Below are positions 3-8,676 of a stretch of 15,024 nt of DNA, in pieces. Position numbers and translations under genes: made by a program. Source of the DNA: Candidatus Thorarchaeota archaeon SMTZ1-45 (GTDB lineage: Archaea; Asgardarchaeota; Thorarchaeia; Thorarchaeales; Thorarchaeaceae); the NCBI GenBank assembly GCA_001563335.1, contig LRSL01000101.1:1-15024 (forward strand), given 5' to 3'. A model generated the notes under the pieces. It made no database searches. It saw nothing but the letters and a program-made list of their open reading frames with translations, and was not told the DNA's origin. Position 1 is the first letter of the stretch. Every line of letters starts with the position of its first letter.

Positions 3-1967
3 GTATCTGTTGAGAAGTCCTCCTCACAAGTACTCCAAGTATCTGTGAAAGAAATTAACAAAGTTGAATCATCTCAAGGAATTCTTGATAGATTGAAACT
101 GATTCCATATAGAGAACCTCCACAAAGGGATGAAGACGATGATGACTCAGAACAGTACTATCCTGCAAAGGAAATCACTCGTGCCCGTATGCACAAAGAG
201 AGAAAGAAATCAGATATACAGAAAATCTGGACACGACGTCCTCCACTATTTGTGGTTCCAAGAGATATCAGGATTGGAGAGAGAGAGTACAGACGAGAAG
301 TGTGGCGAATACTTCGAACAGCAGAGTTTCTTTGTAATAGAACACCTGACATACAACAGGATTGGAGAAGGCTCCTCAACGATGTTGTTACAGTATGTAA
401 GGAAGAAAGAAAGAAATCAGTTGATGTTCTGGAGGACGTAAAGAAAATCTTGGCACAGAAAAAGGAATCACGAGATATATGGAAATTGCTGATAGATGTG
501 AGAAAGGAGTCTATCAATGTAACTCAGAAGGTTGAGTCTACAAAAAGTGCATTGTGGGAACTCTTTGGGAATGACCTCTACTTACTTGTTCTAGCGATAT
601 TTCACGATGATGAGCTAGAGATTGATGTTTCAGCATTTGATGTCCTATGGTCTTCATTTTCAGACTGGCAGTTTTCCAATATGGGATATATTCCGTATGA
701 ACAACCGGATACATACGTGACATCGAAGTATGATGTAATCTCAATATGGACTAATCTTAGATGGAGAGCAAAACAGCTAGGGCGTATTAGGCCAGTTATT
801 GGAGTTTTCGAAGACTATAGATTTGGTCTTCTTGTTAACATTAATCAAGTTAGTAGTTGGTTGATGATTCAGACTAGATCTGGACAACAGTCAATGAATG
901 CGGGATATTCTGAATCTTTTCAGTGGCCCTTCCGTTGGAAATGGTATGACTGTATAACAGACCCGTTTCAACTTGAGGAAGTGAGTGATAGTTCTTGGGA
1001 CTCTGCTGTTCCGATTGTCATTACTCAAAGTGAAGGAAAGGATATCCTCTGGACTCCAAGAATGGAGGATGATGAGATTGTTCAATGGTGGGCAGAGGGA
1101 TTGTTTGAATGTGGAATGCCTCCAGAGGGGAGATTAGTCCCAATTAGGTGGTTCAGACTAAGTAGAATTCCTGACACTTTGAAATCTAGATTGATACAAC
1201 CAGAAGTCAATATTCCAAGCAATCTCGAAGACATTGTGAATATAACTCTGGAAGAAATGGATGGATTGAGTGATTATATTAGAAAGGTGAGTTGTCGGGT
1301 AACAATTGATGTTGATAGTGAAGTGTATCAGATTCAATTCTTCGATAAAAAATCTAGGAAGACAGATCCAACTAGCACTTTCGATATCGAAAACACAACC
1401 GAGTTGATTCAGACCTTGAGACATCCAACGTTGAAGGGGATACCCTTCAAGAACGAGTTATGGTGGAATCCTGAATCCGACATCAAGTTTACGAAAGTTG
1501 ACACAGAGTACGGTCCAATCGATTTGACATTTCTTAAACCATTCACCTATCGTTCTCGAAGAGGGTCAAAGCTCTTGAGGAATGTGACCCTTCCTAAGAC
1601 TGCAAGTGATTTACTTCAAACGAGGCTTGGAGATTCAATAACATTGGTTGCAGATTCGAATCTAGAACAGATGGCGTACCCCTACGCAAAGTATTGGAGA
1701 ATTCTGTTTCTTCAGACCAAACCTAGTGAGAAGATGCTTCGCCTTCAGAATATTGATGTGAATATCATTGAGATAGCTCAGTTCTTTGAAAGCAAGCAGT
1801 TTATCGATACGACAACCAGGCTGAGACATCCTCTTAGATTTGTTATAACCAACCTGAAGCAAGTCAGTTTCCCGGAAGATGTATTTCGATATAGCGAAAT
1901 TGCTACATATTTGGAAGAGAAGGACATTGTTGCAACAGATGAAAATGACTTCGAAGATTCTGGATAG
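3..1967 (+). CDS. Large hypothetical protein, C-terminal portion (5'-truncated by the window edge)
   Basis: The ORF track gives 45..1967, but the frame is open from position 3 (VSVEKSSSQVLQVSVKE...), so the real start lies upstream of the window. More than 650 codons open, Trp-rich, no motif I recognise. TAG stop at 1965-1967. Confidence 0.8.
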   Translation, partial: VSVEKSSSQVLQVSVKEINKVESSQGILDRLKLIPYREPPQRDEDDDDSEQYYPAKEITRARMHKERKKSDIQKIWTRRPPLFVVPRDIRIGEREYRREVWRILRTAEFLCNRTPDIQQDWRRLLNDVVTVCKEERKKSVDVLEDVKKILAQKKESRDIWKLLIDVRKESINVTQKVESTKSALWELFGNDLYLLVLAIFHDDELEIDVSAFDVLWSSFSDWQFSNMGYIPYEQPDTYVTSKYDVISIWTNLRWRAKQLGRIRPVIGVFEDYRFGLLVNINQVSSWLMIQTRSGQQSMNAGYSESFQWPFRWKWYDCITDPFQLEEVSDSSWDSAVPIVITQSEGKDILWTPRMEDDEIVQWWAEGLFECGMPPEGRLVPIRWFRLSRIPDTLKSRLIQPEVNIPSNLEDIVNITLEEMDGLSDYIRKVSCRVTIDVDSEVYQIQFFDKKSRKTDPTSTFDIENTTELIQTLRHPTLKGIPFKNELWWNPESDIKFTKVDTEYGPIDLTFLKPFTYRSRRGSKLLRNVTLPKTASDLLQTRLGDSITLVADSNLEQMAYPYAKYWRILFLQTKPSEKMLRLQNIDVNIIEIAQFFESKQFIDTTTRLRHPLRFVITNLKQVSFPEDVFRYSEIATYLEEKDIVATDENDFEDSG

Positions 1968-2010
1968 TACCATAAACTTGAAGTAGTATTCAAAGCAGTT
2001 TGCAAATTGA

Positions 2011-2086
2011 AGCCCCGTGGTGTAGTGGTCCAGCATTGAGGGTTTTGGCCTCTCAGACCTAGGTTCAAATCCTGGCGGGGCTACCA
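2011..2086 (+). tRNA. tRNA-Gln(UUG), intronless, CCA encoded
   Basis: Cloverleaf: acceptor AGCCCCG/CGGGGCT + A-CCA; D arm GTGT..GCAT; anticodon stem GAGGG/CTCTC with loop TT-TTG-GC; variable loop AGAC; T arm CTAGG-TTCAAAT-CCTGG. The A1-U72 pair is typical of archaeal tRNA-Gln. Confidence 0.96.
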
Positions 2087-2141
2087 CTTTTCCAAGAGTT
2101 AAAATCATCTTATTCTATCGTCCCAAAAAAGGGGGTTTCTA

Positions 2142-2915
2142 ATGACCGAAAGAAATCAAGTCGAGAGAGCCATAAAGGTGACACTCGAGAATGCTCAAGA
2201 ACTTCTTCGTAATTCTAGAGTTCTTGAAAAACAGGATAGTATTGGACACGCTACTAGTTTGGCAGTACTGGGTTTCGAAGAGGCACACAAAGCCTATCTC
2301 ACATCCTTTTTCCTTCCACTATTTGATGGGATTATCAGTCAAGAGTATAGAGATGATTTGAGAGGGCATTTAAAGAAACATGAATGGAAACAACTTCATG
2401 CGAAAGAGTTCCGTACAGGTCTTGAATACCTGTTAAAATCAGGCGGGTTATCTGAGGATACAAGAGAGCTACTGGGAATTCCAGTCCTGTCTAAAATCAC
2501 TCCAAGCACAGAGTATGCATTTTCAAAGAAACTGAATAAGATGAAAAATGATGGACTTTACGCGGACCCTTTTAGAAACCCAATTTGGTATCCAGCTGGT
2601 ATCAAACTTGAAACATTGAAAGCAGTTCAAGAGTTAGCAGCGACTCAAATTAAATCAGTGAAACGAATTGTAACGGTACTATCAGCAGTACGCTTTCTTC
2701 CAAGTAAGATGATAGAACCTATCAGAAATGAATTAGCATTGTTGTCCTCAACGCTTGATGAATTAAAGAAGGGCATCTCAAATTTTGACGAGTTAAAAGA
2801 GAAACTATCTGAATTCGGTGAAACTGGTAGTATTATGGCTTCGCTTGTTACATTGTACCTTGGTAGTGAAAGGATGAAGCAGATTCAACGCGAGAAGAAA
2901 AGAATGAGAACGTGA
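2142..2915 (+). CDS. abiV: AbiV-family (HEPN superfamily) abortive-infection-like protein
   Basis: Matches the AbiV pattern: N-terminal 'LENAQELLRNSRVL...GHATSLAVLGFEEAHK', central 'HEWK', and 'LNKMKNDGLYAD' (K/R-N-x-x-x-Y-x-D). GGGGGT precedes the ATG. Confidence 0.8.
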   Translation: MTERNQVERAIKVTLENAQELLRNSRVLEKQDSIGHATSLAVLGFEEAHKAYLTSFFLPLFDGIISQEYRDDLRGHLKKHEWKQLHAKEFRTGLEYLLKSGGLSEDTRELLGIPVLSKITPSTEYAFSKKLNKMKNDGLYADPFRNPIWYPAGIKLETLKAVQELAATQIKSVKRIVTVLSAVRFLPSKMIEPIRNELALLSSTLDELKKGISNFDELKEKLSEFGETGSIMASLVTLYLGSERMKQIQREKKRMRT

Positions 2916-2919
2916 GAAG

Positions 2920-2956
2920 CTCGCTGACGGAGGTTCAAATCCTCCCGGGGCTACCA
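2920..2956 (+). repeat. Second copy of the tRNA-Gln 3' portion (att-like direct repeat)
   Basis: CTCGC-TGAC-GGAGG-TTCAAAT-CCTCC-CGGGGCT-ACCA versus tRNA CTCTC-AGAC-CTAGG-TTCAAAT-CCTGG-CGGGGCT-ACCA. T loop, acceptor strand and CCA are identical; the T stem differs but is fully paired. Confidence 0.92.
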
Positions 2957-2962
2957 TCTCAA

Positions 2963-3401
2963 TTAATACTTGAACCAATGATCACCAACCTGAATTTCTG
3001 AGAGGTTTCCCTCTTCAGACCGAGGTTTCCGAATCTCAACAAGGTTGAGAACATTATAACCTCTTTTTTTCAAGAAGTGAATGATGACAGTATTATTCGG
3101 ATGAATCCAATTATAGACGGTTTCTTCATCCGGGTTCTTGACGAGGCGTTCTGCCTGGGAATATAGTGCAGACCCGATACCTTTTCTACGAGCGGATGGT
3201 TTTACAAACAAAGACTCAGCCCAGACGACATTTTGATCAATCCGACAGACCAAGTATGAGATAGTCTTCCAATTCTCTTCTTGCTGCATCAAAGTCATGA
3301 CTCTTTGAGATTGACTTCAGACTTGAAAGGAATACACGATACTCTCCAATTAGAGTTATGAGTTGGTCTTCATCTTCTGGACGATAGTTTCTGATTTCCA
3401 T
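2963..3401 (-). pseudogene. GNAT-family N-acetyltransferase, frameshifted by an apparent internal deletion near 3257
   Basis: ATG at 3401 gives MEIRNYRPEDEDQLITLIGEYRVFLSSLKSISKSHDFDAARRELEDYL (GNAT beta1/alpha1/alpha2), then runs to TGA at 3239-3237. The rest (YLVCRID..ESLFVKPSARRKGIGSALY..HPNN..FLKKRGY; acetyl-CoA motif RRKGIG) is in another frame from 3256. The beta2 strand that normally sits between the two parts is absent. Confidence 0.8.
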
Positions 3402-3491: not shown

Positions 3492-4346
3492 CTATTTTTC
3501 AGTTGGTGTGAGACCGTCACCAGGTTCAGTCATCTGGACACGAAATAGTCTTTTCACATGTGAGAGAACAAGCCGGTCTCCATTGACAAGAACGTCAATC
3601 TCGATATGGTCCTGCAAGCCTGAAGTGGAGATCTTCTTCTCAAGGACTGCTTCAACCTGAAAGACGCCTGCAGGATTATCCATTGCGACAGTTATGTGTA
3701 GCGGCGTTCCTTTACCTCGCTCTAGAATGACATTATCAATAGCCATGGCACTGACTGAGTGTATATCGACCTTACCCTTCTGAAATGGTACTATTGTGCG
3801 GCCCTTGGTCATGTCGCATCCATCACCAAGCTTTGTGATTCCAGCCTCAAGGGTCAAACACTGTGTGTCATCATCATGAGCATAGATTCCGTGAAGGATG
3901 AAAGAGAGAATATCAGTAGCCTTCGCAGGGTCACCGTAGATATCCATAAGCTTCGACTCGAGAATGGGACTTGCCAAATTTATTGATGCTTGAGGGTGTT
4001 CGTTTCTGTGTACAACCATCCCAATATCATGGAGGTATGTTGATGCAAGAACTATGAGACGAGCATCATCCAAGTCTCCAATCCCTTCTGCTACCACATT
4101 TGGTTGGAACGTTTGTTCGAGAATGTCAAAGGCTTTCAGCGCATTCCATGTCGCAACTTCTGCATGGACTGGACCATGGTCTGTATAACCCAGTCTTGAT
4201 ACAGCCATTCGATTTGCTGTACGAAGATAGGACTGTACTTTCGGAGAACCAGTAAGGTGTTGATACATCTCCAGGGCAAGTGATTCGCCATTTAATAATT
4301 CACGTGCACGAATATTCTCTCGTTGAATGACTTCACTCGTATTCAT
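3492..4346 (-). CDS. HD-domain metal-dependent phosphohydrolase (COG3294-like)
   Basis: 'RLGYTDHGPVH', 'YLHDIGMVVHR', 'IYAHD', 'GDGCDMTKGR', 'DIHSVSAMAI' and 'NPAGVFQVE' are the conserved motifs of this HD family. Confidence 0.9.
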   Translation of the reverse strand: MNTSEVIQRENIRARELLNGESLALEMYQHLTGSPKVQSYLRTANRMAVSRLGYTDHGPVHAEVATWNALKAFDILEQTFQPNVVAEGIGDLDDARLIVLASTYLHDIGMVVHRNEHPQASINLASPILESKLMDIYGDPAKATDILSFILHGIYAHDDDTQCLTLEAGITKLGDGCDMTKGRTIVPFQKGKVDIHSVSAMAIDNVILERGKGTPLHITVAMDNPAGVFQVEAVLEKKISTSGLQDHIEIDVLVNGDRLVLSHVKRLFRVQMTEPGDGLTPTEK

Positions 4347-4454: not shown

Positions 4455-4473
4455 AGGTAGACTACATCTACCT
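4455..4473 (-). other. Perfect 7-bp inverted repeat overlapping the stop codon of the ribophorin-like gene (possible 3' stem-loop)
   Basis: AGGTAGA-CTACA-TCTACCT. Function not established. Confidence 0.35.
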
Positions 4474-7447
4474 AGATATCTCCAGCTTCTTCTTGTAATG
4501 ACAATAGGATGCGGTCGCTTGCACTTGTGGCTTTCTGAATGGTCTTCAGATAGTCCTGTCTTGACTTTTCAAAAGCAACGCGACTAATTCGTTGCTTCTT
4601 CTTCCGTAGTAGTAGCTGACGAAGGCCAGCCTTTGCACCCTCAATTCTTTCATCTTGAAGCTCAAGTTGCCCAACAAGATCTCGATACTTTGTCCCATAG
4701 TCTATCAGCTCCGCTCTCAGACTTGGGAGTTTGTTGTCAATCTCGTCAATTTGTTGTTTCAGGTCTCGTTCACGAATCATATACTCTCTCTTCTTTACCT
4801 TGCCTCTTCTTCGCGCTGCATCAAGCTTTTCCAAGTCCATGTTCAGTGAGGTTTTCCTTGAGTATAGATTTGCAAACTCTCTAAGGAGTTCAGGTGGAGC
4901 GCCGACTTGCTTGGGTTGTGTTTCTATGACATCCTCATCGTCTCGGGGTCCTAGGACTTCTTCAGGCAATTCGACCTTCCTCATTGCCACATATATGAGC
5001 CCGATGATTCCAATCAGAAGTGAGAAAACTGCAGGACGTGCTGCAGCCCCAAGTGTTGTTGTGTAGAATAATTCTATTGAGATTGGATTTCGCCTTGTCG
5101 TGTTATATGCTGTGTATCTGAGGGTGATATCGAAAACACCAAAAATCATTCGATAGCCTTCAGTTGCATCAGAGAATGACACTGTTGGAGTCAGTACAAC
5201 ATCAACAACATGTTTCAGAATGAAGACATCAGACAAAACAGCCATCGGTATTTGGAGCTTGTTTGCATTCAAATCAGCACTCTGATAATTACTTGTCTGA
5301 ATAATATAGTCTACAGTGAAGGTGTATCTAAATCCTGACTCCAGACCATCACCGAATCTGTCTGATACAAAGTTTATCCTGATAACACTGGTATCATTGA
5401 ATTCGTCATTTGCTATGAGTCTCTGCGACGACGCGAGAATACCGACCTCATCATAGATAGCGAATCTTGTGGAGTATGCAGGGACTTCGAATTCTAAATT
5501 GTTAAGGACACCAGCACCTATGTTGTTCAGTGTGATTGTTTCTCTGTAGAACAACCAGCCCCATGCATCTACAGTGATCCGTGTTGTGCGTTCAGCAACA
5601 ACATGTGTATTGAAGAGTCGCAGGTATGAGCCAAAGGTGTTTTTTGTGAATGGTGCCAGGTTACGAGCAGTTGAGTCTGGAATTGGCTCATTCGGTATCA
5701 ACGATCCACCCTGTTCAAAGACCAATGCAAACTCAGCATCACGAATGACATATGAGAGTAGGGGATATCTCAAGAACTCAAGTCGATATTCCCACTCACT
5801 GGGGTCTGTCAACCAGAACAGTCTTGTCATGTACATCGTTGTTTCGAAAGAGTACTGTTCTTGATATCCAATAGGGTCGCTGAAATGCAACCTCCAGCGT
5901 AGCATACCATTGGAGTCTGCAAGACGTGTGAGAGTAATCTCATTATCATCATCATCTATGGCAGTCATTGCTATGAAGTTTGATGCATAATCATCCGGTA
6001 GGAATATGTCAAAGTGGTTGATTGGGACAGAACCATTATTGACTATGGTATAACTGTCATCCACTCGGGACCCAAAGTGCACAGTTGGAACAAAGACACG
6101 TTCAACATCCACCTTCATGCCCAGATAGGGAGAGTAAGGCCTGTCAATAGTGACATTCACAAGTTCTATGGCTGTCGCATTTGATATGTCAGTTGCATTG
6201 AATGAAATAGTGTGAGATCCTTCAGAATATTCTGATATGTCAAGACTCACTTCCCAGAGTCTGGAAGTGAAGTCATACTCCAGAGAGCTCCAATCCTCTT
6301 GATCGAACCGATATGATGCGTCTTTCACCCAGTCATCAGTAGCATTGAGTTGCAGATTGACAACCCACTGTAGAGTGTCATTTTCTTTGGGGTTTTCAAC
6401 AATCAAAAGTGGCGGTGCATTTGGTTCAATGTTCACCATTGCAGGTTCGGTCCAAGAGGTATGCTGTACTGGTAATCCATTTAGCACCTCTTGATTACCA
6501 AACATAAAGATGAATGGAAATTGAATGTCTGTGCTGTTGAACAAGGGAATGTCGTTGATATCTGCACTGTTTAACAGAATCGCGAATTCAAGTTGAGTAA
6601 ATGTGCCATTGTCAGTTCCATCAGCCTGCAGAATCCTTGATTGGTCCGTGTCAGGACGATGTTGAAAAGTGCTTGTTCCATACTCATCACTGAATACAAT
6701 CTGACTCTGATCAGCTGGATTATCGAGCTCTGAGATTGTGTTCCTGTATATCCGCGTTAGTTCAATATCGTATATCAAGTCCTCTCCATAAAGCTCATGG
6801 TCCTTCTGAGTATAGGCTTGATGGGCGGGGATTGTGAAATGACGCTTCTCACCAACCCGCATTCCGAGTATGGCATCCTTGTACTTTTGGAGAGCATTAA
6901 CATCCTCAAGAGGTTGGACTGAGGTGATGTCTGGAAAGTCTGCCTCCTGAATTACTGTACCATTCCTCAATGTCAAGACATAGTGTACTGTCACAGCATC
7001 CGTCGGTAAGACCCTCCAATAAGGGTCAAGATTTGTACCAGGGGAATATCCAACTATGACATCACTGTTGTTCAGACCAGCTGCAGTGAATGTGTCAGTG
7101 TAGTTTTGCCATGCAAAGCCAATCCATCCTCCTGTTCTAGCCTCTAGACCAATAAACAACACAGTACCATTATGCTCAGCATAGACTCTAACCCCGGTCA
7201 CCGGATCCGTGTATGTGAGTGTATATTCAGTCGGGTCTATTATTCCATCAGTAATTCCATAGTAATCATCAACATAGGGGATAGATAGATTCACTACAGA
7301 CTCGGCCAAGGTTGACCCAAAGTCCCTGTTATGAGCCAAGTATCCTGATTCCAAAGTATCCGAGATTGGACTTAAAGCCATGAAACTGCTTGTCACGAAT
7401 AATGTGAGCAGTAGTAGGGTTGCTATCTTTCTATTCAACAGGCTCAA
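4472..7447 (-). CDS. RPN1: Ribophorin I (OST subunit RPN1/Ost1)-like type I membrane protein with N-terminal DOMON/CBM9-like, inserted FKBP and Ig-like domains and a cytosolic helical tail
   Basis: TTG start with GGTGA SD (7454-7458); signal peptide aa 1-25. RPN1-like motifs in aa ~444-797: 'NLAPF', 'TRITVDAWGWLFYRETITLNNIG' (cf. TRVIEVSHWGNIAVEE), 'VPAYSTRFAIYDEVGILASS' (cf. LP..YYRDEIGNVSTS), 'RF..GLESGFRYTFTVDY' (cf. RFPLFGGWKTHYIVGY). TM helix aa ~805-822. FKBP motifs 'DAVTVHY', 'GMRVGEKRHFTIPAHQAY', 'GEDLIYDIEL'. Confidence 0.82.
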   Translation of the reverse strand: MSLLNRKIATLLLLTLFVTSSFMALSPISDTLESGYLAHNRDFGSTLAESVVNLSIPYVDDYYGITDGIIDPTEYTLTYTDPVTGVRVYAEHNGTVLFIGLEARTGGWIGFAWQNYTDTFTAAGLNNSDVIVGYSPGTNLDPYWRVLPTDAVTVHYVLTLRNGTVIQEADFPDITSVQPLEDVNALQKYKDAILGMRVGEKRHFTIPAHQAYTQKDHELYGEDLIYDIELTRIYRNTISELDNPADQSQIVFSDEYGTSTFQHRPDTDQSRILQADGTDNGTFTQLEFAILLNSADINDIPLFNSTDIQFPFIFMFGNQEVLNGLPVQHTSWTEPAMVNIEPNAPPLLIVENPKENDTLQWVVNLQLNATDDWVKDASYRFDQEDWSSLEYDFTSRLWEVSLDISEYSEGSHTISFNATDISNATAIELVNVTIDRPYSPYLGMKVDVERVFVPTVHFGSRVDDSYTIVNNGSVPINHFDIFLPDDYASNFIAMTAIDDDDNEITLTRLADSNGMLRWRLHFSDPIGYQEQYSFETTMYMTRLFWLTDPSEWEYRLEFLRYPLLSYVIRDAEFALVFEQGGSLIPNEPIPDSTARNLAPFTKNTFGSYLRLFNTHVVAERTTRITVDAWGWLFYRETITLNNIGAGVLNNLEFEVPAYSTRFAIYDEVGILASSQRLIANDEFNDTSVIRINFVSDRFGDGLESGFRYTFTVDYIIQTSNYQSADLNANKLQIPMAVLSDVFILKHVVDVVLTPTVSFSDATEGYRMIFGVFDITLRYTAYNTTRRNPISIELFYTTTLGAAARPAVFSLLIGIIGLIYVAMRKVELPEEVLGPRDDEDVIETQPKQVGAPPELLREFANLYSRKTSLNMDLEKLDAARRRGKVKKREYMIRERDLKQQIDEIDNKLPSLRAELIDYGTKYRDLVGQLELQDERIEGAKAGLRQLLLRKKKQRISRVAFEKSRQDYLKTIQKATSASDRILLSLQEEAGDI

Positions 7448-7638
7448 TATGAATCACCGTGATTTCATCGGGGTTTATGTCGAGTGGATTCAGATTCCAC
7501 TATACGGGAGATTGGTCGCTCGAGCTTCTGGTTTGTTATTATAGATTTCGGATGTTGAAAGCATGCACGAACAATCGAATCCTCTCCGAAAGAGTCAAAA
7601 TGGTATCAAAGTGCCATCAGGCATCGGAAGTGGTCCAT

Positions 7639-8676
7639 GTGATTTCAATCCTCATTGCTTTATCTGCAGCATTTACAGTTGTTATACTTTTCATGCCTCA
7701 GGTAATCAAGATGCTGCGTGAGGCGGGGAGATTTGGAATCGATGTGCATAAACCAGAGAAGCCTGAGGTGCCCAAAGGTGGTGGACTCATAGTACTCTTC
7801 GCAATAGTCTTCGGCCTGCTTGTAGTCATTGGTATCACGACATTTCAGGAACAAGCAGAGGTCCATGAGGGGCTCCTTGCTGCATTGGTTTCAATACTCA
7901 TGGCAGGTTTCATTGGTCTTCTAGATGATACTTTTAATTTCACGACACGGACAAAAATCATCCTTCCATTGGTTGCCTCTATTCCAATGGTCGCAGTGAG
8001 TGTGGGCAACCCTACCATTTCAATTCCCTTTATTGGTACTATCAACTTTGGTCCATTCTATGCCCTTCTTATTGTCCCCTTGATGATGACTTTTATTGTA
8101 GACTCTACTAACATGTATGGGGGTATGAATGGACTTGAAGCAGGTCTAAGTACGATCAATTCCTCAGCAGTCATACTCTATGTCCTACTTTCGCCCTACG
8201 TTAATGGACATACGATAACGACAGCTCAGACTGACGCTGGAATGGTGGCTGCATCTCTATTTGGTGCATCTATTGCTTTTCTAATCTTCAACAGATTTCC
8301 AGCCAAAGTATTGCCAGGAGATGTTGGTAGGCTTCCACTTGGAGCTGCAATGGCGGCAGCGTTAATCTTGGGCAACATGGACCGGCTAGCCATAATAATG
8401 TACATACCATTCATGTTGAACTTTCTGCTTTACATAATATATCGTGTGTATGTCAAAAGAAGAAGAACCGAGTATGTAAAGTTCGCATCTCCAAGGGAGG
8501 ATGGGACTCTGGAGGTGATTGGTCCATTTACGATATATTGGATACTGCCATATCTCTCTAAGAACATAACAGAAAAACGGAATGTGCAAATGCTATTACT
8601 TCTGCAAGCGCTGATAGCATATGGAGCTGTGGTCTTTCTCCTCATTGCATATCCACTTGGAGTAGGTATAATCTAG
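7639..8676 (+). CDS. aglH: UDP-GlcNAc:dolichyl-phosphate GlcNAc-1-phosphotransferase (AglH/ALG7/DPAGT1-like, MraY/glycosyl transferase family 4)
   Basis: Polytopic membrane protein with 'GIDVHK..PEVPKGGG', 'GLLDD', 'NMYGGMNGLEAG', 'FNRFPAKVLPGDVG'. The ORF track starts at 7459, but the first ~60 codons look non-coding. Likely start is GTG 7639 after GAAGTGGT; ATG 7600 is an alternative. Confidence 0.85.
   Translation: MISILIALSAAFTVVILFMPQVIKMLREAGRFGIDVHKPEKPEVPKGGGLIVLFAIVFGLLVVIGITTFQEQAEVHEGLLAALVSILMAGFIGLLDDTFNFTTRTKIILPLVASIPMVAVSVGNPTISIPFIGTINFGPFYALLIVPLMMTFIVDSTNMYGGMNGLEAGLSTINSSAVILYVLLSPYVNGHTITTAQTDAGMVAASLFGASIAFLIFNRFPAKVLPGDVGRLPLGAAMAAALILGNMDRLAIIMYIPFMLNFLLYIIYRVYVKRRRTEYVKFASPREDGTLEVIGPFTIYWILPYLSKNITEKRNVQMLLLLQALIAYGAVVFLLIAYPLGVGII

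Follow-up and report, generated by a model that had tools for sequence, protein, structure and literature searches.

The window, i.e. the whole analyzed stretch of 15,024 nucleotides from Candidatus Thorarchaeota archaeon SMTZ1-45 (contig LRSL01000101.1), contains on its minus strand a single open frame of 991 codons (positions 4472-7447) with a TTG start, and the plus strand across the same positions is crowded with stops. The database copy of the protein has 988 aa, which places the start three codons further in. The start and signal peptide (aa 1-27, 7367..7447) would thus begin at TTG 7447 or at the codon at 7438, and consist of a hydrophobic stretch (aa 7-29) preceded by arginine and lysine. 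Still on the minus strand, the signal peptide is followed by the first part of a DOMON domain (aa 52-134, 7046..7294), an insertion with an FKBP domain (aa 135-244, 6716..7045), the second part of the DOMON domain (aa 245-344, 6416..6715) and an Ig-like domain of the Big_7 type (aa 345-437, 6137..6415), together referred to below as the head. The remainder is ribophorin I/OST1: an extracellular region of two lobes (aa 444-610 and 616-797, 5057..6118), a TM helix (aa 803-825, 4973..5041) and, in the cytosol, a bundle of four helices (aa 852-988, 4484..4894). The TM helix is supported by hydropathy, with a hydrophobic stretch at aa 799-827, and by a helix at residues 365-388 of a structure model of aa 435-991. 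The protein is a type I membrane protein with the RPN1 lobes outside, one TM helix and the basic bundle inside; all of its 15 N-x-S/T sequons lie N-terminal of the TM helix, and it has no cysteine. This layout agrees with the preliminary description, made from the letters alone, which had listed a signal peptide, a DOMON-like region (aa ~55-340) containing an FKBP domain, an Ig-like domain (aa ~343-436), a two-lobed RPN1-like region (aa ~444-797), one TM helix and a helical tail.

Two genes flank OST1. Divergent from it on the plus strand is a GT4 gene (7600..8676; Pfam Glycos_transf_4, E 7.8e-27), whose frame is open from 7459 but which probably starts at the ATG at 7600, with relatives aligning from aa ~14-71 on. 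We take this gene to be of the Alg7/AglH type; an assignment as MraY equivalog was rejected, as the NCBIfam MraY models scored far below their cut-offs. Directly downstream of OST1, on the minus strand, is an HD-domain-like gene (3492..4346), for which the Pfam HD match (E 0.0011) is below the cut-off. Both genes hold the same position next to OST1 at 10/10 Thor-type loci. The unrelated genes Top6, RIO1 and NMD3 are conserved alongside at these loci too, so the synteny within one order may be simple inheritance. For the other Asgard families, a GT4 gene was found within the 16-18 kb examined at eight out of 12 OST1 loci. The GT4 neighbor speaks for a link of OST1 to glycosylation. Elsewhere in its own genome, the archaeon encodes STT3 (914 aa) and an OST3/6-like gene.

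The homology of aa 444-991 to ribophorin I is firm. For the structure model of aa 435-991 (mean pLDDT 85.8), the eight best Foldseek matches were all RPN1/Ost1 (E 8.6e-29 to 1.1e-19, the next match being at 3.4e-9), and VIA comparison with solved RPN1/Ost1 chains gave Z 27.2-30.8 with 361-514 residues aligned. Sandwiches of the aminopeptidase-N type, which the preliminary description had named as the generic match that would refute the RPN1 reading, reached just Z ~13 over one lobe, as against Z 27-31 for RPN1/Ost1, whose match takes in the TM helix and both lobes; the refutation thus fails. Pfam Ribophorin_I (PF04597) gave 23.5 bits for the segment and 21.6 bits for the window protein against a cut-off of 25, which is exceeded by the homologue P0122 (28.7 bits); of the 219 database homologues, 18 among the best 120 have a precomputed PF04597 match. 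A phmmer search with aa 435-991 retrieved 288 cluster representatives at E <= 1e-3, and those among the matches listed were mostly proteins of 550-640 aa that aligned end to end. From the window half and 51 of these phmmer-found relatives, for most of which the taxon was not identified, a family profile was built; 35 of its 52 aligned sequences match Pfam Ribophorin_I. It reached human RPN1 with E 1.1e-49 over chain residues 10-604 and yeast Ost1 with E 1.1e-24, while human RPN1 was missed at E <= 0.001 by a profile of Thor-type sequences only. The most conserved portion of the protein is the cytosolic tail, a homologue of the OST1 ribosome-binding domain both by sequence (8whn_A; phmmer E 2.6e-5, Thor-only profile E 7.4e-7) and by fold (VIA Z 16.5, 141/142 residues aligned, rmsd 2.0).

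In searches of whole genomes the family profile gave one OST1 match per genome in the family to which the window belongs, and it found the window gene once in its own genome, of which this gene is the sole detected OST1/ribophorin I. Pfam Ribophorin_I, run against that same genome, gave no match, this gene included, the first-look filter being too coarse for such a divergent member. Likewise, tblastn with the window proteins gave no match on a locus (L029) where the family profile had located OST1, and of the NCBIfam models only those for FKBP matched OST1, all below threshold. Overall, the profile search identified the OST1 family in 376 out of 400 Asgard genomes; the preliminary description had already noted that RPN1 homologues occur in Asgard archaea.

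The head, by contrast, is confined to one order, where ~400 residues were gained at the OST1 N-terminus. The fused form was found in 82/86 other genomes of this order: the full-length head is present in 81/85 genomes from the family of the window genome and in the single genome from a second family (1/1). Outside the order, the scan of the 400 Asgard genomes with the head gave single-domain matches only. Two shorter proteins, P0122 (608 aa) and P0126 (565 aa), were considered as head-less Thor OST1 and set aside as probable fragments, P0126 being labelled partial and P0122 lying on a 2-kb contig, with cluster partners of 986 and 937 aa. A search for shorter head proteins gave 17 matches of 103-475 aa, of which seven are named, all as Thorarchaeota and partial. 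The head also occurs without OST1, in six free-standing proteins anchored by a TM helix.

That two separate genes had been joined by misassembly, a one-off error that the preliminary description had kept in mind, is refuted by these data. The 120 best of the 219 homologues are 51-100% identical to the window protein and cover 77-100% of it (at least 90% in 116), and the matches in the genomes of the order sit in open frames of ~985-1000 aa. Furthermore, the junction of head and RPN1 region near nt 6125 is crossed by contigs of two other sequencing runs with zero differences. The short database matches to either half lent a chimera no support, 7/17 short head matches being labelled partial.

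Within the head, the DOMON domain is interrupted in one loop by a compact FKBP12-like domain. Residues 54-134 and 245-296 align to adjoining parts of uninterrupted Asgard DOMON proteins (BLASTP E 8e-13), in which the FKBP-bearing stretch (aa 135-244) has no counterpart. Pfam DOMON (PF03351) itself matches the head only weakly (E 0.17, 12.5 bits; cut-off 32.7), but the intermediates pass this cut-off (40.7-89 bits) and match the head, which relates it to the Pfam family. As MAFFT misplaced the second DOMON half owing to the insert, the BLASTP segments were used instead. The fold of aa ~52-344 resembles 2ivf_C best (Z 14.0, 163 residues aligned, rmsd 2.7), followed by 7b04_C (Z 12.7), CBM9 (1i82_A, Z 11.9), the putative carbohydrate-binding protein 4jpq_B (Z 11.2), dopamine beta-hydroxylase (4zel_B, Z 10.8) and the CDH cytochrome domain (1d7c_A, Z 10.3), and the alignments to the DOMON superfamily run across the FKBP insert (model residues 25-317). 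An ESM Atlas look-up with aa 28-345 gave no usable match. The Ig-like domain has a fold match (VIA Z 13.6, 89 residues aligned) together with a Pfam Big_7 match (E 6.4e-4, 20.7 bits) below the cut-off of 24.1, which is exceeded in the homologues P0124 and P0127.

DOMON domains are reported, in excerpts of PMC10784544, to bind haem or sugars, and both possibilities were considered for the head. The two best fold matches come from ethylbenzene dehydrogenase and nitrite oxidoreductase, in each case the haem-b subunit, and His263, His329 and Met315 are conserved, as would suit a haem-b domain for electron transfer at the cell surface with no role in folding. However, haem-type DOMONs use a Met-His pair according to the same excerpts, and at the position where the uninterrupted Asgard DOMON proteins have G-M-D-G the heads carry Leu125 (Leu in 119/121 sequences). 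Judged from these residues, the Met that presumably serves as haem ligand is probably absent, and we regard such a redox function as extremely improbable. Somewhat better placed, though still unlikely, is a CBM9-like lectin that reads the N-glycan or the lipid-linked donor, in keeping with the quality-control idea of the preliminary description. Such a lectin would tie FKBP-assisted folding to the state of the glycan, or else fasten OST1 to the glycosylated cell envelope. CBM9 and the putative carbohydrate-binding protein are among the fold matches, Trp108, Trp113 and Trp332 are each present in 119/121 sequences or more, and the neighboring gene is a GT4. Against this, the haem-type structures match the fold at least as well as CBM9 does, and the relatives nearest in sequence are DOMON proteins that in some cases match the CDH cytochrome family as well.

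The insert itself holds an FKBP domain. Pfam FKBP_C (PF00254) matches aa 148-230 with E 4.1e-10 (40.3 bits, cut-off 21.1), FKBP13 matches its fold with TM 0.77-0.80 and rmsd 2.2-2.4 (for 4nnr_A, TM 0.77 and rmsd 2.4), and VIA comparison with FKBP structures gave Z 11.4-12.6. The chaperone domain inserted in the flap of SlyD-type FKBPs is lacking, and the alignment to SlyD skips it, which counts against a folding helper. The pocket was assessed at what we take to be the canonical FKBP12 positions, i.e. Y26, F36, D37, R42, F46, V55, I56, W59, Y82 and F99. Compared with the canonical FKBP12-like protein of the same genome, only the tyrosine pair Y26 and Y82 is unchanged. Six substitutions are conservative (F36 to Ile, F46 to Leu, V55 to Ala, I56 to Leu, W59 to Tyr and F99 to Tyr), while the equivalents of D37 and R42 are Gln and Ser, respectively, the Gln occurring in 119/121 sequences. 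Leaving Leu180 out of the count, seven of nine head pocket residues are unchanged in at least 115/121 sequences, and the other two, Ile166 (86/121) and Ala185 (95/121), vary conservatively. Such near-invariance shows the pocket to be under selection, and the replacement of Asp37 and Arg42 suggests that the predicted isomerase activity may be low or absent.

The altered pocket also bears on another explanation, namely that the FKBP is catalytically dead, with its pocket permanently filled by a partner or by a loop of the complex, and that the head is an adaptor or scaffold which organizes or regulates OST and the translocon, e.g. by gating access to AglB. The Gln and Ser replacements are consistent with this, and a strictly invariant altered pocket would fit one fixed ligand. 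There is also a precedent in human FKBP11, whose pocket is buried by CCDC134 in a human structure, and which is described in the available portion of PMC12804085 as a ribosome-binding adaptor, the authors arguing there against a nascent-chain isomerase role. On the other hand, the six free-standing TM-anchored heads without OST1 suggest that the head can function alone. We consider the adaptor somewhat unlikely, although less so than the lectin.

The function that we favour, with moderate confidence and by analogy, is that of a folding helper tethered to the translocon and OST, i.e. a holdase or slow isomerase that would be the fixed counterpart of FKBP11. In this proposal, OST1 would sit with AglB/STT3 and OST3/6 beside the Sec translocon at the cell membrane, with its tail holding the translating ribosome and its head overhanging the outer exit of the translocon. 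There, the FKBP pocket, possibly together with a face of the DOMON domain, would bind proline-containing segments of emerging unfolded chains, and the head would act as holdase or slow isomerase during sequon glycosylation. It would thereby correspond, in permanently tethered form, to FKBP11, a protein recruited to the ribosome-Sec61-OST-A translocon. More tentatively, and with a greater chance of being wrong than right, Thorarchaeota may have hard-wired an FKBP on the outer side of the ribosome-bound Sec/OST translocon, where it would couple co-translational N-glycosylation to chaperoning of the emerging chain, with the FKBP-in-DOMON arrangement as a new composite client-binding unit. In SlyD, a chaperone domain is inserted into an FKBP, and the FKBP nested in DOMON is the inverse of that arrangement. 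Since the head is a soluble module of ~400 residues that can be expressed alone, the folding-helper idea is directly testable.

OST1/ribophorin I is a eukaryote-signature protein of Asgard archaea, and its function is, to our knowledge, poorly defined even in eukaryotes. Its permanent joining, in this lineage, to a probable folding-helper domain can be read as a 'Rosetta stone' hint that the nascent chain, rather than the sugar donor, is what this accessory OST subunit acts on. The head has a human parallel in FKBP11, found at the translocon in 2025, and, if the proposed function is true, a function of FKBP at the translocon arose independently at least twice. Being confined to one order, the head is a derived feature and not a trait of the eukaryotic ancestor, and it appears very unlikely that the FKBPs of the ER trace back to Asgard surface FKBPs of this kind. 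The preliminary description had known of no account of the architecture. In our literature search no paper describing an FKBP-in-DOMON head on OST1 was found, so that part stands, but Asgard OST1 itself, including its ribosome-binding tail, has already been published, as seen in excerpts of PMC11417166.

Components of the window protein are recognizable in several known systems. The DOMON surface proteins of other Asgard archaea (L040-L044) resemble it in their homologous DOMON domain, and they too have a signal peptide, Ig-type domains and a TM anchor at the C-terminus, but their DOMON is uninterrupted, with G-M-D-G kept, and they have neither FKBP nor RPN1 region. In the eukaryotic ribophorins of solved OST complexes (6S7O, 8B6L, 6EZN and 6C26), the fold is shared over lobes and TM helix, and for human RPN1, whose four-helix bundle docks ribosomes, also over the tail; identity to human RPN1 and yeast Ost1 is only 12-17%, and the head is absent from eukaryotes. 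The OST1 of the Lokiarchaeon 'Ca. Prometheoarchaeum syntrophicum' MK-D1 and those of other Asgard archaea (~575-640 aa) likewise have two extracellular lobes, a single TM helix and four bundled helices in the cytosol, although these proteins begin directly with the RPN1 lobes and lack the ~400 residues that precede them in the window protein. Compared with the crystal structure of the MK-D1 OST1 cytosolic domain (8WHN), the window tail gives Z 16.5 at 21% identity, and the MK-D1 tail binds ribosomes in pull-downs, as reported in excerpts of PMC11417166.

A published parallel closer than malectin, the ER lectin partner of RPN1 named in the preliminary description, is human FKBP11, which, in the portion of PMC12804085 available, binds ribosome-associated Sec61/OST-A translocons (PDB 9N9J/9YGY). 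Like FKBP11, the window protein is a membrane-anchored FKBP on the far side of the membrane, and its siting at an OST/ribosome translocon would be the same. The layout of FKBP11, in which a signal peptide and an FKBP-containing ectodomain precede a TM helix and a short basic tail, recurs in the free-standing head paralogues. By fold, the FKBP of the head matches FKBP11 with Z 10.9, while the similarity in sequence is weak (E 0.047) and no greater than to FKBP2 or other FKBPs. As the FKBP11 pocket is buried by CCDC134, the parallel supports an adaptor as much as a foldase. FKBP11 is a separate protein that is recruited, whereas the window FKBP is a covalent part of OST1, nested in its DOMON domain, and the resemblance is a functional analogy of place and topology rather than membership or demonstrated common descent.

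By reading both strands of 4472-7447, we found one frame of 991 codons with a TTG start on the minus strand, and no open frame on the plus strand. The product is OST1, the ribophorin I homologue, with a conserved, nested head of about 400 residues at its N-terminus (a DOMON domain with an inserted FKBP, followed by an Ig domain), which confirms the architecture observed in the preliminary description. As to topology, the hydrophobic stretches are the N-terminal aa 7-29 and aa 799-827; all 15 sequons lie ahead of the latter, and Cys is absent.

The assignment of aa 435-991 to ribophorin I/OST1 is clear on all evidence beyond the Pfam score, the Ribophorin_I match on aa 435-796 being borderline (23.5 bits, cut-off 25). 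Searched with phmmer, aa 435-991 had 288 matches at E <= 1e-3 among 1.84 billion cluster representatives, and 139 at E <= 1e-10. The majority of these relatives, among the matches listed, are 550-640 aa long and align end to end, the named members being MAG proteins of Odinarchaeia, Helarchaeota and Asgardarchaeia. Out of 52 aligned sequences of this half and its relatives, 35 had a Pfam Ribophorin_I match (best 2.7e-33). A profile of these 52 sequences, most of them without a taxon assignment, found human RPN1 at E 1.1e-49 (chain residues 10-604), the OST1 tail of the Lokiarchaeon MK-D1 at 4.1e-49 and yeast Ost1 at 1.1e-24. With Thor-type sequences alone, i.e. those of the order with the head, the profile found the MK-D1 tail (8WHN, 7.4e-7) and FKBP2 (1.6e-5), and did not reach RPN1 among solved structures.

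The AlphaFold2 model of aa 435-991 (mean pLDDT 85.8) points the same way. Its eight top Foldseek matches were RPN1/Ost1 chains (E 8.6e-29 to 1.1e-19; the next match 3.4e-9), which VIA, a structure aligner, superposed at Z 27.2-30.8, and 8WHN aligned at Z 16.5 over 141 of 142 residues (rmsd 2.0). The preliminary description had proposed RPN1 homology and named as the opposing outcome a match of aa 444-797 to generic aminopeptidase-N/S-layer sandwiches; this fails because aminopeptidase-N type sandwiches reached Z ~13 at most, mainly over one lobe, and the homology survives. Conservation along the protein is highest in the tail, whose counterpart in MK-D1 is described, in an excerpt of PMC11417166, as a four-helix bundle that pulls down ribosomes.

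Within the head, aa 148-230 score above the Pfam cut-off for FKBP_C. As modelled within aa 28-441 (pLDDT 77.8), the FKBP superposes on FKBP13 with TM 0.77-0.80 and rmsd 2.2-2.4, and on SlyD, SlpA and FKBP11 at Z 10.9-12.6. The sandwich around it was matched to structures of the DOMON superfamily, namely 2ivf_C (Z 14.0), 7b04_C (12.7), CBM9 (11.9), dopamine beta-hydroxylase (10.8) and the CDH cytochrome domain (10.3), in alignments extending over model residues ~25 to ~317, which thereby span the FKBP. The Ig domain, Big_7-like, follows the DOMON at aa 345-437. Weak partial matches to the head were found in other Asgard families by genome scan, and the five proteins fetched from these (loci L040:2439-3626, L041:2384-3544, L044:2290-3051, L042:1561-3285 on the minus strand, and L043:1934-3661) are surface proteins anchored by a TM helix, each carrying one or two DOMON domains without interruption (Pfam DOMON 40.7-89 bits, cut-off 32.7). 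In BLASTP, aa 54-134 of the head correspond to the first part of such an uninterrupted Asgard DOMON (E 8e-13) and aa 245-296 to the part immediately after it; the intervening aa 135-244, which hold the FKBP, have therefore been inserted into a loop of a DOMON type already present in Asgard archaea.

Those surface proteins that have tandem DOMONs additionally match the cytochrome family of cellobiose dehydrogenase (27.8 bits for L042, cut-off 27), and the uninterrupted proteins may be haem-b proteins located outside the cell. According to an excerpt of PMC10784544, DOMONs of the haem type rely on a Met-His pair. The G-M-D-G of the uninterrupted relatives reads G-L-N-N in the head, with Leu in 119 of 121 family members, and because this Leu replaces the presumed ligand Met, haem binding by the head DOMON seems unlikely.

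The window's genome also has a canonical FKBP12-like gene of 109 aa, to which the head FKBP is 32% identical. When the pocket was mapped in FKBP12 numbering, the tyrosines at Y26 and Y82 were found to be kept, whereas F36 is Ile, F46 Leu, V55 Ala, I56 Leu, W59 Tyr, F99 Tyr, D37 Gln and R42 Ser. Of the nine pocket residues counted (Leu180 left out), seven are the same in 115 or more of the 121 family members and two vary conservatively (Ile166 kept in 86/121, Ala185 in 95/121). This near-invariance argues that the pocket is under selection, yet by its residues it would be non-canonical.

Among 219 homologues in the database, the best 120 share 51-100% identity with the protein and measure 769-996 aa; precomputed Pfam matches give FKBP_C in 109 and Ribophorin_I in 18 of these 120, and their submitter labels are chiefly Thorarchaeota, with singles of Sifarchaeia, Promethearchaeota and others. 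Among 400 species-representative Asgard genomes, a full-length head match, in open frames of about 985-1000 aa, was found in 81 of the window family's 85 genomes, as well as in the single genome that represents a second family in the same order. The other Asgard families contributed 29 matching genomes, with single-domain matches only. Of the four family genomes with no head match, three have no OST1 match either; these are 60-86% complete. The OST1 profile matches 376 of the 400 genomes (89 of 90 high-quality ones), and outside the order most frames, among the matches listed, measure about 575-640 aa; a few are cut by contig ends at about 490-505. The head, confined to one order, has therefore been added in that order to an OST1 found throughout the phylum. 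A single OST1 match per genome is the rule in the window's family (80 of 82 matched genomes), and the junction between head and RPN1 part is crossed without differences by contigs from two runs of other studies. One genome of the family has an OST1 open frame of 1233 aa (G387:C47:57157-59985) vs about 990 aa, which may be a further extension or merely a long upstream open stretch.

A second, free-standing head gene occurs in two genomes of the family (2/86 of the order), at L024:6129-7889 and L025:7534-9321, both on the plus strand and encoding 586 and 595 aa; the database proteins P0317-P0321 are also of this kind. Each begins with a signal peptide and the DOMON-FKBP unit; Ig domains and a linker rich in Ser and Thr follow, then a TM helix with a short basic tail, and the RPN1 part is absent. 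In the large database, five out of 80 matches were free-standing head clusters (567-586 aa), and 73 of the other 75 were at least 940 aa long and fused-like. When 29 head sequences were placed in a tree, the six free-standing ones grouped in a single clade (SH-aLRT 100). With the tree rooted on the second-family lineage, this clade is nested among fused heads from the window's family; the root is assumed, and support at the deeper nodes is only 84-87. This fits a duplicated head that lost its OST1 part, and demonstrates that a membrane-anchored head can exist on its own.

The window is archaeal housekeeping DNA, with Top6A/B, a KH protein, RIO1, eIF-1A and NMD3 on one flank of OST1, and an HD-like gene, GNAT and an AbiV/HEPN gene on the other. 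Divergent from OST1 is a GT4 gene (Glycos_transf_4 in Pfam at E 7.8e-27) whose frame opens with a GTG at 7459, just 11 nt off the OST1 start. Because its relatives align only from about residue 14-71 on, the ATG at 7600, which comes before the first TM segment, is the likely GT4 start, so that the intergenic region is probably about 150 bp. An AT-rich TTATTATAG element lies near 7538, between the two genes. A second, diverged contig from a possible source run of the window covers 7191-7282 and 7406-7539 (within 7191-7568), i.e. the signal-peptide region and the intergenic region, and suggests strain variation there.

The order NMD3, eIF-1A, RIO1, KH, Top6B, Top6A, GT4 facing OST1, HD was kept in 10 out of 10 sampled loci, from nine genera of the window's family and the second family; taken alone, the conserved block could simply have been inherited. 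In 12 loci of other Asgard families, where OST1 has no head, the 16-18 kb fetched included a GT4 homologue eight times, once in the divergent arrangement; by tblastn over the same 16-18 kb, three of the remaining four loci had OST1 without GT4 and one gave no match whatever. OST1 is followed 125 nt downstream by the HD-domain-like gene (3492-4346, minus strand), whose Pfam match falls short of the cut-off (E 0.0011); it has this position in 10/10 related loci. Beyond it, a 654-aa ORF (3-1967, plus strand) without Pfam or NCBIfam match, the AbiV/HEPN gene (2142-2915, plus strand) and a short GNAT (2963-3298, minus strand) make 3-3298 look like a variable, possibly defence-related patch: the ORF and the AbiV/HEPN gene, the two that were queried, had no match in 9 of 10 related loci, and locus L026 matched the ORF partially. 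The STT3/AglB (914 aa) and OST3/6-like (140 aa) genes of the window's genome lie about 4 kb apart on a contig other than that of OST1 (G000:C24; AglB at L001:106-2850, the OST3/6-like gene at L002:1486-1908), parted by glycine-cleavage and pterin genes.

The tails of MK-D1 and human OST1 are shown to dock ribosomes, and this tail would do likewise; OST1 would sit beside AglB at the Sec translocon, and the head would offer a peptide-binding FKBP pocket to emerging chains. Human FKBP11, which binds Sec61/OST-A translocons associated with ribosomes, is a published parallel. A catalytically dead pocket that holds a fixed partner, and so organises the OST or translocon, stays alive as an alternative because the pocket of human FKBP11 is buried by CCDC134, the authors being doubtful of an isomerase role (excerpt of PMC12804085). 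The earlier interpretation, in which a prolyl isomerase/chaperone and a possible glycan-binding domain are tethered to an AglB/STT3-associated subunit, is as a whole only partly supported, its RPN1 homology having held. No description of a head on OST1 was found in the open-access literature searched. The FKBP part is recognised in databases, since the automatic NCBI name of these proteins is 'FKBP-type peptidyl-prolyl cis-trans isomerase'. Asgard Ost1 is already published, as excerpts of PMC10307638 (citing a 2017 Asgard paper) and PMC11417166 attest.
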